The notes below the pieces were generated by a model. The model searched no databases, was not told where the DNA came from, and worked only from the letters and a program-made list of their open reading frames with translations. Positions 26,909 through 62,177 of a DNA stretch of 64,000 nucleotides are shown one piece after another. This DNA is from a virus. The stretch spans positions 41,564 to 105,563 of IMG/VR virus record IMGVR_UViG_3300021961_000042, one strand, 5' to 3'. The position numbers and the translations under genes are program-made. Each line of letters begins with the position of its first letter. Within the stretch, counting starts at the first letter, position 1.

Positions 26909-27532
26909 ATGAAAAAAATAATAAGACTTACGGAAAGGGATTTAACAAGAATAGTTAGAAGAGTATTAAATGAAGAACCAATGACTAATCCTGAAGAAGA
27001 AATGCCAACATTACCAATGCAAGAAATACCTAGTAATATACCTAATAGTATACATTCAGATATCGATGATTTATATGAAAAAAGAGATGAATTGGCTAAA
27101 GAGTTTATGAAGTTGGAACGTAGAAGTGGTGGTTTAATGGGTAGATTGAAAAATAAAGTAGGAGATAAAATGGGTGAGTTGGAAGATAGCGCAAAAGAAG
27201 AAATTGAAGAAATTAGAGTAAATGTATTAATGATACTTGATGACATCAAAAGAAAATTACAATCTTTGAAGTTAAACGCTAAAAAAAGAAAAGAGGAAAG
27301 AATGAATAGAAGACATAAAGAAAGATTAGAAAGAGAAATTGACATATATGAAAAAAGCATTCAAGATATTAAAGATAAAAAAATAATAACTGCTAGAGAT
27401 TTACAAAACTTAAAAGATATTCTATCAATCAGTGGTATATACATAACCATGATCGGAAGTATAATTGCAAGATTTATATACATGCATAATGATGAATCAA
27501 ATTCAGAAATTAATCCTCATCTAAGAGACTAA
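26909..27532 (+). CDS. Coiled-coil protein with LTExDL-type leader and C-terminal hydrophobic segment
   Basis: MKKIIRLTERDLTRIVRRVLNEE; TATTTATA upstream; own terminator. Confidence 0.65.
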   Translation: MKKIIRLTERDLTRIVRRVLNEEPMTNPEEEMPTLPMQEIPSNIPNSIHSDIDDLYEKRDELAKEFMKLERRSGGLMGRLKNKVGDKMGELEDSAKEEIEEIRVNVLMILDDIKRKLQSLKLNAKKRKEERMNRRHKERLEREIDIYEKSIQDIKDKKIITARDLQNLKDILSISGIYITMIGSIIARFIYMHNDESNSEINPHLRD

Positions 27533-39246: not shown

Positions 39247-39278
39247 TTTGGTAGATTAAAAAAAACTACATATCTTTG
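39247..39278 (+). promoter_or_regulatory. Bacteroidota sigma-A-type promoter TTTG-N20-TATCTTTG
   Basis: Matches -33/-7 consensus; similar elements at 47974/47998, 60694/60718, 61759/61782, and -7 boxes at 30255, 37840, 48861, 50293, 63728. Confidence 0.75.
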
Positions 39279-39283
39279 TATTA

Positions 39284-39352
39284 ACAAAAAAAAGTTCTTC
39301 TTGTCAGAATACATTAAGAACAACCACAGTCAGAATACTGTGGTTTTTTTTT
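39284..39352 (+). ncRNA. Candidate small RNA with two CAGAAU-loop hairpins, the second being a terminator
   Basis: Promoter immediately upstream, no ORF; GTCAGAATAC at 39303 and 39329; AACCACAGT/ACTGTGGTT stem plus T tract. Confidence 0.55.
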
Positions 39353-39746
39353 AAACGAAAATTTGGAGTTGTCCTTTACTTACGGTAAACCCTTCTTTTT
39401 TCATTACTGTTATTATTATCAAATCCCAGTGATTTATATAATTTTTTTTTGGCTCAATAACTATATTAAGTTGATCTCCTTTTAACCTACTTACAATAAA
39501 TCTTTTACCATTTCTGATTTTACCTTCAATAATGTTATAAACTATATCATCTTTTGCGTCCTCTAATAATTTTACAATATTTAAATCGTAAATTTTATTT
39601 CCCGATCCATGTCTCCATTTTCTGTCATTGGTATGACCCCATTCATCGTGGTAAAGATCAAAATCAAAAGTCACATCATTACTAATTTCATGAAATTTTT
39701 GTTCTTGTAATAAAGTTTTTTTAATTATGTTATTTAAACCTATCAT
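39351..39746 (-). CDS. Hypothetical protein with leader
   Basis: MIGLNNIIKKTLLQEQ; TATTTATT upstream on the minus strand. Confidence 0.65.
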   Translation of the reverse strand: MIGLNNIIKKTLLQEQKFHEISNDVTFDFDLYHDEWGHTNDRKWRHGSGNKIYDLNIVKLLEDAKDDIVYNIIEGKIRNGKRFIVSRLKGDQLNIVIEPKKNYINHWDLIIITVMKKEGFTVSKGQLQIFV

Positions 39747-39801
39747 CTTAATAAATATGATATTCTTTATTATAAGTATTTATTAACTATAATAATATAA
39801 T

Positions 39802-47950: not shown

Positions 47951-48009
47951 GATTATATTTTAATAAAGTTCGGTTTGAAAATAAATATTTAAATTCTTAT
48001 ATTTGTATT

Positions 48010-48849
48010 ATGTTAAGTTATATCGGTGGTAAAAGTAAGATTGGAAAGTGGATAGTTCCTTTCTATGATAAAAACATGGAGATTTATTTAGAGACCTTTG
48101 GAGGTATGTATTGGTGTTTTTATAACATGGACCTAAAACAATACCCAAACCTAAAGAAAGTTGTTTATAACGACTTTAATCCATTAAATTATAATTTGTT
48201 TAAATGTGTGCAGAACCCATCTGAATTATTAATGGCGATTAATTCAATAGATTGCCAAAAACAAGGGGTCGATCTTACTCCTGAAATATATAAAGAACAA
48301 TTTATAAGCTTTCAGGCTGAAATTTTTAATCAAGGTTTCAGCGTAGAACCTGGCGATTATGAAGTGGCAGCCAAATACGTTTATATTCTTACACAAGTAT
48401 TTAGTGGGTCAAAACCTGAGACATCTAATTTTATTGATCTTAAAGGTAAGTACAAGTCAAAGTATCTAACATTTAGAGATAAGTTATCTAAACCTGATTG
48501 GGTTGATCATTTTTTAAAAATAACTGATGTTGAAAACATGGATTTTTCAGACGTGATCGATAAATACGACTCACCATCCACATATACCTATTTAGATCCA
48601 CCGTATTGGAAAACAGAAAACTACTATTCAAATCACGATTTTGATAGACAAGACCACGAAAGGTTAGCAAATGTTTTACATAATGTTAAAGGTAAATTTA
48701 GTTTGTCTTATTATGATTTTGAATTATTACATGAATGGTTTCCTGAAGATAAGTACCGTTGGGTCAAAAAAGAGTTCGCTAAGGCCGCATCTGCTAAGAA
48801 AGGAGAAAAACAAAATATGGGAGAAGAGTTATTGATTATGAATTATTAA
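48010..48849 (+). CDS. Dam-like DNA adenine methyltransferase (D12 class)
   Basis: YIGGKS, ETFGG, VYNDFN, YLDPPY, ELLIMNY. Confidence 0.9.
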   Translation: MLSYIGGKSKIGKWIVPFYDKNMEIYLETFGGMYWCFYNMDLKQYPNLKKVVYNDFNPLNYNLFKCVQNPSELLMAINSIDCQKQGVDLTPEIYKEQFISFQAEIFNQGFSVEPGDYEVAAKYVYILTQVFSGSKPETSNFIDLKGKYKSKYLTFRDKLSKPDWVDHFLKITDVENMDFSDVIDKYDSPSTYTYLDPPYWKTENYYSNHDFDRQDHERLANVLHNVKGKFSLSYYDFELLHEWFPEDKYRWVKKEFAKAASAKKGEKQNMGEELLIMNY

Positions 48850-50325: not shown

Positions 50326-50607
50326 ATGAGAAATTTAGATATAGACATTTACATGACAAACTTCAAGGGGTTCTTTGATAAAAACCCCGAACAATTGACA
50401 CAACTGATAGGTTTAATAGACTCAGAAAAGTTTTTTGATGGTGTTAGAAGTATTGTAGAAGAAAATTCTAAGGATGAAGAAAAGGCACTTGAACCAACAA
50501 GAAAGCAACTTATAGATTTAATAGTAAAACTTAATGGTAACAAAACAGGCGTTGATAAAGTAATGCCATATATGCAACACCACATGGGTTTAATTTGTAT
50601 GAATTAG
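50326..50607 (+). CDS. Hypothetical protein
   Basis: ATG downstream of TATCTTTG box. Confidence 0.55.
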   Translation: MRNLDIDIYMTNFKGFFDKNPEQLTQLIGLIDSEKFFDGVRSIVEENSKDEEKALEPTRKQLIDLIVKLNGNKTGVDKVMPYMQHHMGLICMN

Positions 50608-61761: not shown

Positions 61762-61793
61762 GTGCATTAAAATTTTTTGTATATCTTTGTATC

Positions 61794-62177
61794 ATGAAAG
61801 AAGGAAAGGCAATCAGAGACAAACAAATAAAGGCAATCAAAACGGTTTTGAAAGAATCAAATTTTGAATTAAAACAGTTAGATAACACCGCGTATTCTGA
61901 ACTTGATAAGGCGGTTGTAAAAATTGTTAATGTAAGAAAATATAAAAGCGGTTGGGGTAGTAGTTTTTTGTATGAAGTTGACGTGGTTGTTGATATGAGA
62001 ATAGACGGTAGTTATTTTTACTCAAACAGATACTGTGAAAGATTTAAAGTAAGATGTAATGGTTATTATAGATACAAAATTGAAAAAGTAATAGCAAATG
62101 AGATTAAATATTTTGGTGTAGACACTCAATATGATAATGTATGTGTTAAAAAAATAACTTACAAACAAATTGTTTAA
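61794..62177 (+). CDS. Hypothetical protein
   Basis: 127 aa with TTTG-N19-TATCTTTG promoter. Confidence 0.65.
   Translation: MKEGKAIRDKQIKAIKTVLKESNFELKQLDNTAYSELDKAVVKIVNVRKYKSGWGSSFLYEVDVVVDMRIDGSYFYSNRYCERFKVRCNGYYRYKIEKVIANEIKYFGVDTQYDNVCVKKITYKQIV

Follow-up and report, generated by a model that had tools for sequence, protein, structure and literature searches.

What does a phage do with a predicted transcript that carries no gene and displays the same loop twice? This question is raised by a 111-bp gap in an A+T-rich phage genome (30% G+C), where a twin-hairpin element lies between two convergent genes, one for a sigma-70-like factor and one for a 131-aa protein that we call P0001. 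The source record, IMGVR_UViG_3300021961_000042, is 105,563 bp long with a CheckV completeness of ~35%, and the window discussed here is the whole 64,000-nt stretch of it that was analyzed. Because the genomes of relatives reach 270-297 kb, we regard it as a jumbo phage, and the group is probably one of freshwater jumbo phages with Bacteroidota hosts. Comparative analysis indicates that the element is a conserved structured RNA module made of a host-type promoter, two covarying hairpins, and a U-tract. Each hairpin displays a selected loop of the form GU-YAGAAN-AC, and hairpin 2 is predicted to double as an intrinsic terminator. We know of few phage-encoded small RNAs and of almost none from Bacteroidota phages. 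With its defined promoter, terminator, covariation, and selected loop motif, and with no Rfam family, the element is a clean small-RNA candidate.

An earlier sequence-only reading of the locus had described a consensus host promoter that drives a stand-alone RNA of ~65 nt. The promoter is indeed host-type, although it matches the sigmaA class of Bacteroidota and not the sigma-70 consensus. In Flavobacterium, the sigmaA -7 box has the consensus TAnnTTTG and lies at -12 to -5 (PMC9723704), which places the predicted start near 39283 and makes the RNA ~70 nt long. A stand-alone transcript with its own promoter and terminator is still predicted, at a slightly greater length than first proposed. 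We infer its 5' end from promoter geometry and its 3' end from the terminator. Relatives keep both promoter boxes, with a variable spacer between them. As the earlier reading had stated, no ORF follows the promoter: the predicted RNA holds no conserved ORF, and a 17-codon TTG frame in it is broken in relatives. The features of the locus are collected in Table 1.

Table 1. Coordinates of features at the twin-hairpin locus (window positions unless a contig is named) and of related elements in other phages.
Feature	Position	Strand	Details
Sigma-70-like factor, 271 aa	38424..39239	+	Pfam Sigma70_r2 8e-17, r4 1.6e-15, r1_2
Bacteroidota sigmaA-type promoter	39247..39278	+	-33 TTTG (39247-39250), 20-nt spacer, -7 box TATCTTTG (39271-39278)
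Predicted small RNA, ~70 nt	39283..39352	+	A-rich 5' leader, hairpin 1, hairpin 2, U-tract
Hairpin 1	39294..39321	+	loop CAGAAU at 39305-39310, GU/AC closing
Hairpin 2 (terminator stem)	39322..39345	+	loop CAGAAU at 39331-39336
U-tract of predicted intrinsic terminator	39346..39352	+	about T9; last two bases in P0001 stop codon
P0001, 131 aa	39351..39746	-	stop codon overlaps T-run of twin-hairpin RNA
TATTTAT motif, phage-type promoter-like	39751..39757	-	4 nt upstream of P0001 ATG
Type a RNA			twin hairpins; convergent, abuts P0001-family stop codon; displaced by insertion in two cases
Type b RNA	L012:3858-4006		upstream, on same strand as 178-179-aa homologues; terminator in between
Type c RNA, ~110 nt	L015:3822-3955		begins GGGTTGAACCGAG; convergent, abuts stop codon
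Type d RNA, ~140 nt	L004:2834-2975		z -3.9; convergent, abuts stop codon
Type e RNA	L079		
PTm1 ORF-144/ORF-145	L322:1865-2562 (phage PTm1 108364-109061)		ORF-145 is the P0001 structural homologue in a cultured jumbo phage

Folding confirmed both hairpins, their identical CAGAAU loops, and the closing GU/AC pairs, all of which had been read from the letters. Hairpin 1 consists of a GTTCTT/AAGAAC outer stem, a 2x2 internal loop, and a TGT/ACA inner stem. Hairpin 2 has a 9-bp stem (AACCACAGT/ACTGTGGTT) with four G-C pairs and a 6-nt loop, and the U-tract follows it as in a rho-independent terminator; the T-run is kept in all relatives. The 121-nt gap region folds with an MFE of -24.4 kcal/mol (z -3.5), and the predicted 70-nt transcript reaches -19.3 kcal/mol compared with -8.8 for shuffled sequences (z -4.1), none of 200 shuffles being as good. 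Both hairpins contain the 10-mer GTCAGAATAC, at 39303 and 39329. These are its only two copies in the 105,563-bp record, where base composition predicts ~0.2 per genome. This 10-nt loop segment is all that the hairpins have in common, and TRF found no tandem array at the element.

Two promoter classes meet at this locus, the host-type box of the RNA and the TATTTAT motif of P0001. TATTTAT stands 4-6 nt before the start of all P0001a homologues examined and, as a phage-type promoter-like element, precedes many other genes of the same phage; in the window, it is found 4-25 nt before many other start codons. Elsewhere in the window, the ORFs at 48010 and 61794 have a TAnnTTTG box (48005-48012 and 61789-61796) whose end lies 4 nt short of the ATG. 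Both promoter classes probably produce leaderless or near-leaderless mRNAs. A timing offset between RNA and protein is plausible from the two promoter types, and the host-type promoter, taken by itself, would suggest that the RNA is expressed early.

Is the loop itself under selection? The earlier reading had proposed so, since the two stems differ while loop and closing pairs are identical. We compared 80 loci anchored on the sigma gene (protein identity 69-94%), which show a conserved promoter past the sigma stop codon, and added more distant phages that carry the element by pattern scans of IMG/VR. A covariance model, R1, was built from 23 sequences. It recovers the double hairpin in 9 of the 80 sigma-anchored loci and finds a single site in the window, the twin hairpins (86.7 bits, E 3e-16). 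In the 23-sequence alignment, 90% of cells are paired, compared with 35-56% in slid-partner controls, and both-sided compensatory changes occur at 10 of 20 base pairs. They affect 7 of 11 pairs in hairpin 1 and 3 of 9 in hairpin 2, which is paired in 100% of cases and includes swaps of A-U for G-C.

The loops behave differently from the stems. Hairpin 1 has at least four unrelated stem versions (GTTCTTnnTGT, TTAATTGT, TTTTGGTGT, and TTGATCGT), and its loop is CAGAAU across them, or UAGAAU in two (YAGAAU). Because one earlier scan had required the loops, we rescanned with the hairpin-2 stem fixed and the loop unconstrained. All 26 loops recovered were CAGAAU, CAGAAC, or CAGAAA. The corresponding pattern for hairpin 1 with a free loop returned nothing new apart from unrelated coding matches. 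Moreover, the 52-nt core is 90-94% identical at the nucleotide level in phages whose sigma genes are 65-82% and P0001 genes 70-76% identical. These comparisons indicate that selection acts on the loops while the stems differ, as originally proposed. One phage (L005) carries the only double hairpin with both loops changed, and its protein is 41% identical to P0001.

Conservation of the loop had been named as the point that would separate an RNA with a displayed loop from a mere bidirectional terminator. A plain back-to-back terminator, whose shared loop arose by chance or by recent local duplication, would be suggested by the A8 before hairpin 1 and the T9 after hairpin 2 in this window, as with these flanks each strand sees a hairpin and then a U-run. 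We consider this explanation extremely unlikely. The loop is kept across diverged phages with covarying stems, which contradicts it; the A8 tract is confined to this window and absent from all relatives; and some copies of the element have no convergent gene beside them. As a candidate bidirectional terminator the element was rejected, hairpin 1 and not an A-tract being what precedes hairpin 2.

Comparison with known classes gave the element no name. Rfam returned nothing at the element even at E <= 10 and nothing in 20 related loci at the gathering threshold; ARAGORN found no tRNA or tmRNA in the surrounding island; and the element contains no CRISPR-like or Csr-like motif. A BLASTN search with 1.6 kb of the locus against 50,697 phage records produced one weak 160-nt match, in the sigma gene. 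A limited literature search found no description of the element or of the P0001 family, and no annotated relative. That a small RNA can be paired with a small nuclease is an established concept, with type III and type I systems as precedents.

The contexts in which the element occurs bear on whether it is simply a transcript end. It is found in four settings: with its promoter and a convergent P0001 homologue (this window, L008, L024, L056, L083-85, L086, L099, and L109); with its promoter and inserted genes between the element and P0001 (L102 and the L090 group); without a promoter directly at a stop codon, which in ten contigs ends an unrelated 98-aa ORF and in L003 and the decayed L054 ends the sigma gene; and downstream of the terminator of another small RNA (L026-28). 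A homologue of the 98-aa ORF, 93 aa long and with a host-type promoter, lies at 50326-50607 of the window, and the twin hairpins are absent from this copy. In a 272-kb genome estimated to be 93% complete (G004), the double hairpin stands past the unrelated 98-aa ORF, and no P0001-family gene was detected at E <= 0.01. The hairpins can therefore function without the protein.

These settings invite the explanation that the element is a specialized 3'-end module, in which a terminator and a stabilizing hairpin serve several transcript ends and the loop acts in cis on termination efficiency, exonuclease protection, or processing. Hairpin 2 with its U-tract has the form of a canonical terminator, and the placements right after the stop codons of the sigma gene and the 98-aa ORF and after an RNA terminator all agree with such a role; the promoter-proximal copy would then be a by-product, keeping the sigma gene insulated from its convergent neighbor. 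It is difficult, however, to call a by-product what is preceded by a conserved -33/-7 promoter placed 5-35 nt before the element alone. In addition, other terminators in the genome lack a partner hairpin, and their loops are unrelated. A natural control is provided by L102 and L090/L273, in which fibre-like genes were inserted between the RNA and P0001. The promoter-proximal RNA there retains both CAGAAY loops, whereas the hairpin at the far junction keeps the stem start AACCACAAT and has the loops TTTTA or TTAATG. As the loop motif is lost from the copies of this stem that serve as terminators at the new junctions, the loop is not needed for termination as such. We therefore view a purely 3'-end role as quite unlikely.

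The inserted genes between RNA and P0001 amount to 0.9-2.5 kb, and the RNA is intact in these cases. In L102 and L273-L275, one to three fibre-like genes sit exactly between hairpin 2 and the P0001 stop codon, with a hairpin-2-like stem duplicated at the far junction of the insert. Terminator hairpins may thus serve as recombination points. Could the element itself be a DNA-level signal, a recombination or cassette-exchange site formed by its two direct GTCAGAAYAC repeats or by hairpins in single-stranded DNA? The element lies in an island that is a hot spot, holding alternative cassettes as well as methyltransferase and endonuclease-like genes; one phage (L003) carries a hybrid of two hairpin types, and the insertions are flanked by hairpin-2-like stems. 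Nevertheless, compensatory changes preserve pairing in the transcribed strand, where a promoter precedes and a U-tract follows the hairpins, and the cassette is not accompanied by any recombinase or HUH-type gene. A DNA-level role is for these reasons very unlikely.

The island itself is hypervariable. It is bounded by the sigma gene, its conserved left anchor with 177 relatives among viral contigs, and by a conserved membrane-protein gene. Between them, relatives hold methyltransferases, an endonuclease-like gene, or nothing. In L006 and L079-L082, the island carries an endonuclease-like ORF (MSKRKTNEEF...) together with cytosine-methyltransferase-like genes (MNVLSLFDG...), as many as four in tandem; such genes mark it as an accessory-gene hot spot.

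P0001-family genes in this island do not occur without an RNA. A small structured RNA adjoins all 65 distinct genes, 35 of 35 distinct proteins on viral contigs and 30 of 30 on metagenome contigs, although every case lies in the same island of a single phage group and the count is inflated by shared cassette ancestry. Each RNA belongs to one of four sequence types, with a variant hairpin pair in one phage (Table 1). The cassette moves as a unit, behind differing upstream genes. RNA type does not strictly follow the protein tree: the L020 and L061 proteins resemble partners of type c, yet carry type d. Types a and c are also found as orphans.

None of the other types matched a known family, Rfam searches on types b-e giving chance-level rows only. 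Type c, laid out as GGGTTGAACCGAGATTACCC...GGTGAAAATCCTCAAT... with a strong terminator and without an Rfam match, is the commonest island element and often occurs without a P0001-family gene; besides L015, it is present in L021, L040-49, and L056, and before the membrane gene in L008 and L024. Type d (also in L010, L019, L132-140, and L276-291) forms a multi-stem fold with an MFE of -40 kcal/mol. The helix that closes this fold on its 3' side extends into the final codons (IWVD*) of the convergent gene, and no terminator comes before that gene. Type b (also in L016, L029, L036, and L064) has the order RNA, terminator, gene and so resembles a type III toxin-antitoxin locus in which tandem repeats are absent; its cassettes have their own TATTTAT motif as well.

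What kind of protein keeps such company? P0001 is basic (pI 8.8) and soluble, and proteins of its family are 125-151 aa long. They are marked by an N-terminal '..LLxE' helix, an H38-x3-R42 motif, and a C-terminal 'QLxIxV', with E15, H38, I68, and T113 nearly invariant and R42 likewise among the island homologues. A profile of the island homologues matched 227 cluster representatives, mostly of 125-150 aa, at E <= 1e-3 among 1.84 billion proteins. Named relatives were not found by sequence: there was no Pfam match to P0001 at E <= 1, no Pfam, PHROG, or PADLOC family for P0001 and three relatives, no PDB profile match below E 0.08, and no tblastn match in 50,697 phage records.

Predicted structure gives more direction. 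AF2 models of two subfamilies that are ~31% identical, each with pLDDT 81, both combine a four-stranded sheet with three helices, of which the N-terminal one is long. A Foldseek search of the PDB returned no match at E <= 1e-3, with HigB2, YoeB/ParE, and T4 RegB as its weak top rows, and the ESM Atlas gave unnamed viral clusters only, the nearest named family being DUF4258 at 0.79, a lead only. With VIA-align, model 1 matched a CdiA-CT RNase (Z 5.4), RelE (Z 4.3), ParE, and RegB (Z 4.0 over 93 residues). Model 2 matched the RelE/ParE-type toxin 7vd7 (Z 6.2), colicin E5 and BrnT (5.5), HigB2 (5.3), RelE (5.2), and RegB (4.8), and ~30 of its best 50 rows were toxins of the RelE/ParE-type fold. 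For both models, RelE/ParE-type toxins, BrnT, colicin E5, and T4 RegB dominate the top of the ranking. The RegB alignments cover 87-93 residues across both models. ParE-type members of this fold are not RNases. All of these Z values (4-6.2) are under the safe level of Z 8, and for this reason we call a RelE/RegB-like fold likely for P0001 and only infer from the models that the protein is a ribonuclease. The topology described for RegB, an extra first helix, two helices, and a four-stranded sheet, is the one predicted for P0001 (PMC3014915). RegB and RelE/YoeB are its closest structural matches, and P0001 is, like RegB, a small basic phage-encoded protein. In contrast to these similarities, P0001 has no sequence similarity to either protein and no Pfam RegB or RelE match, and the structural scores are weak.

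In BFVD, a protein of Tenacibaculum phage PTm1 matched the P0001 model at E 3e-7; another match, at E 1.5e-3, was to a T4-like 'site-specific RNA endonuclease'. The PTm1 homologue, ORF-145 (pI 9.7), has no RNA module. Instead, it is translationally coupled, through an overlap (TAATG), to an upstream acidic 88-aa frame, ORF-144 (pI 4.1), which sits behind a TAtaTTTG promoter. By their arrangement, the two may form a protein toxin-antitoxin-like pair. This type II layout suggests that the P0001 family needs a neutralizer, a part that in the freshwater phages may perhaps be played by RNA.

Our preferred explanation, which we advance tentatively, is that the RNA is a partner of the putative RNase P0001, acting through its two loops as an inhibitor or pseudo-substrate. 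In this scheme, the strong host-type promoter would yield the RNA in excess, and P0001 would act as a RelE/RegB-like endoribonuclease or toxin. P0001, perhaps as a dimer, would bind and perhaps cut the two identical loops, and the nuclease would be held in check by the RNA as with a type III antitoxin or a pseudo-substrate. Orphan RNAs in other phages could provide immunity against related nucleases or be mere 3'-end modules. A point against this partnership is that promoterless copies stand right after stop codons (L003, L054, and group 2), like an ordinary 3' end.

The convergent layout raises the alternative that the RNA is a cis-antisense regulator transcribed toward P0001, similar to a type I antitoxin. 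Since the P0001 stop codon overlaps the T-run, the P0001 mRNA must run into the hairpins. They would exactly complement its 3' untranslated end, make a loop-loop kissing contact, and then form a duplex, leading to decay of the toxin-like mRNA or blocking its 3'-end formation. Convergent RNAs and toxin genes with a shared terminator region are known from Fst RNAI/RNAII of pAD1, TxpA/RatA, and BsrG/SR4, and loop-loop contact is the first step in convergent type I systems. Here, too, a small RNA and a toxin-like gene are transcribed toward each other and share a terminator region. This layout, with the stop codon in the T-run or in the RNA, recurs for three unrelated types (a, c, and d), and type d, without a terminator before the gene, must run antisense into it. 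Additionally, the RNA and the gene use promoters of different classes (host-type and TATTTAT, respectively), which fits an antisense pair, and the minus-strand loop AUUCUGA contains the YUNR-like sequence CUGA; YUNR has a role in antisense pairing.

We nevertheless regard antisense control as unlikely. Complementarity in cis needs no given loop sequence, which leaves two identical conserved loops unexplained. The RNA remains intact in phages with 0.9-2.5 kb of genes between it and P0001, it is kept where the convergent gene is absent (group 2 and L026), and type b RNAs share the strand of their gene and precede it. Conservation is also lacking for the A8/U8 at which a minus-strand mRNA would terminate past hairpin 1. 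Unlike type I toxins, which are short hydrophobic peptides, P0001 is soluble and basic, and the twin-hairpin RNA persists without any overlapping gene. Pairing of the loops with the P0001 start region was also considered as a candidate and rejected, as there is no conserved complement.

The sequence-only reading had favored a target in the host, with the loops acting early in infection as a decoy or sponge that would titrate an RNA-binding protein or a defence nuclease of the host. A host-type promoter, two identical displayed loops under selection, and orphan copies in genomes without the P0001 family would all be expected of such a decoy. Phage RNA mimics of antitoxins are known, with pseudo-ToxI as an example (PMC3475682). 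However, a decoy leaves unexplained the constant neighborhood with a phage gene family. A search for such hairpins in hosts had also been suggested at the outset, and a pattern scan gave no counterpart: among the at least 120 bacterial genome matches listed for the twin-loop pattern, none had stems around both loops, the matches being tandem repeats or chance. The loops lack the GGA of Csr/Rsm targets, and they are unlike an anticodon loop, having no U at position 33. An anticodon-loop mimic was accordingly rejected as a candidate (no U33, loop of 6 nt). We judge a host decoy to be improbable. Because the RNA is constantly linked to the phage's own RelE/RegB-like family, a pair internal to the phage is at least as likely as a host target.

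Two other non-coding RNAs offer partial parallels. CsrB/RsmZ also repeat one short motif in the loops of their hairpins, but their loops contain GGA, occur in many copies, and bind CsrA/RsmA, whereas here there are two CAGAAU loops without GGA. The put RNA of phage HK022 consists of two adjacent hairpins just past a phage promoter, with no ORF, and acts in cis on RNA polymerase to suppress termination. Our element has the same order of promoter, two adjacent hairpins, and no ORF, but its second hairpin is itself a predicted terminator.

How, then, does the proposed RNA-nuclease partnership compare with type III toxin-antitoxin systems (ToxIN, CptIN, TenpIN)? The similarities are a small structured RNA with its own promoter and a repeated motif beside an endoribonuclease-like protein, a setting of conflict between phage and bacterium, and the existence of orphan RNA copies in phages, as known for pseudo-ToxI. 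The type b cassettes of the island even share the order of promoter, RNA, terminator, and gene. ToxI is a tandem repeat array encoded ahead of its toxin gene and on the strand of that gene, whose product folds like MazF/Kid (PMC5086642). In contrast, the twin-hairpin element has no tandem array and its RNA is convergent with the gene, so that the upstream same-strand layout is met only by the related type b cassettes. Furthermore, the structural matches of P0001 are of RelE/ParE type, with no Kid/MazF match among those listed, and no ToxN-family match was found in Pfam or PADLOC.

A more far-reaching possibility is that the whole island is a polymorphic toxin-immunity locus of the phage, in which each cassette would pair a RelE/RegB-like nuclease with its cognate neutralizing RNA and orphan RNAs would give immunity against competitors. 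We consider this unlikely, but worth stating. Within such a locus, the '..LLxE' leader, which other proteins of this phage also have, may mark the nuclease for capsid packaging and injection. If true, this would be a new class of RNA antitoxin, with a RelE-fold toxin and a non-repetitive convergent hairpin RNA, used in conflict of phage against phage. The pairing of the RNAs with a diversifying toxin-like family, in cassettes that differ between close relatives, suggests RNA-based control of, or immunity to, nucleases. It is a long-standing question in T4 whether RegB has an 'anti-RegB' partner (PMC3014915). The cassettes make a question of this type directly testable with two small parts that can be synthesized. 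Should the partner model prove wrong, the two repeated loops still give a defined starting point in a search for the factor that recognizes them.

Finally, the window contains a set of otherwise unrelated proteins that share a type of N-terminus, a short amphipathic helix whose last residues are hydrophobic-x-Glu (for example, MIGLNNIIKKTLLQE). Such starts are found at 39702-39746 on the minus strand and at 26909, 48896, 54127, 58074, 59885, and 62596.
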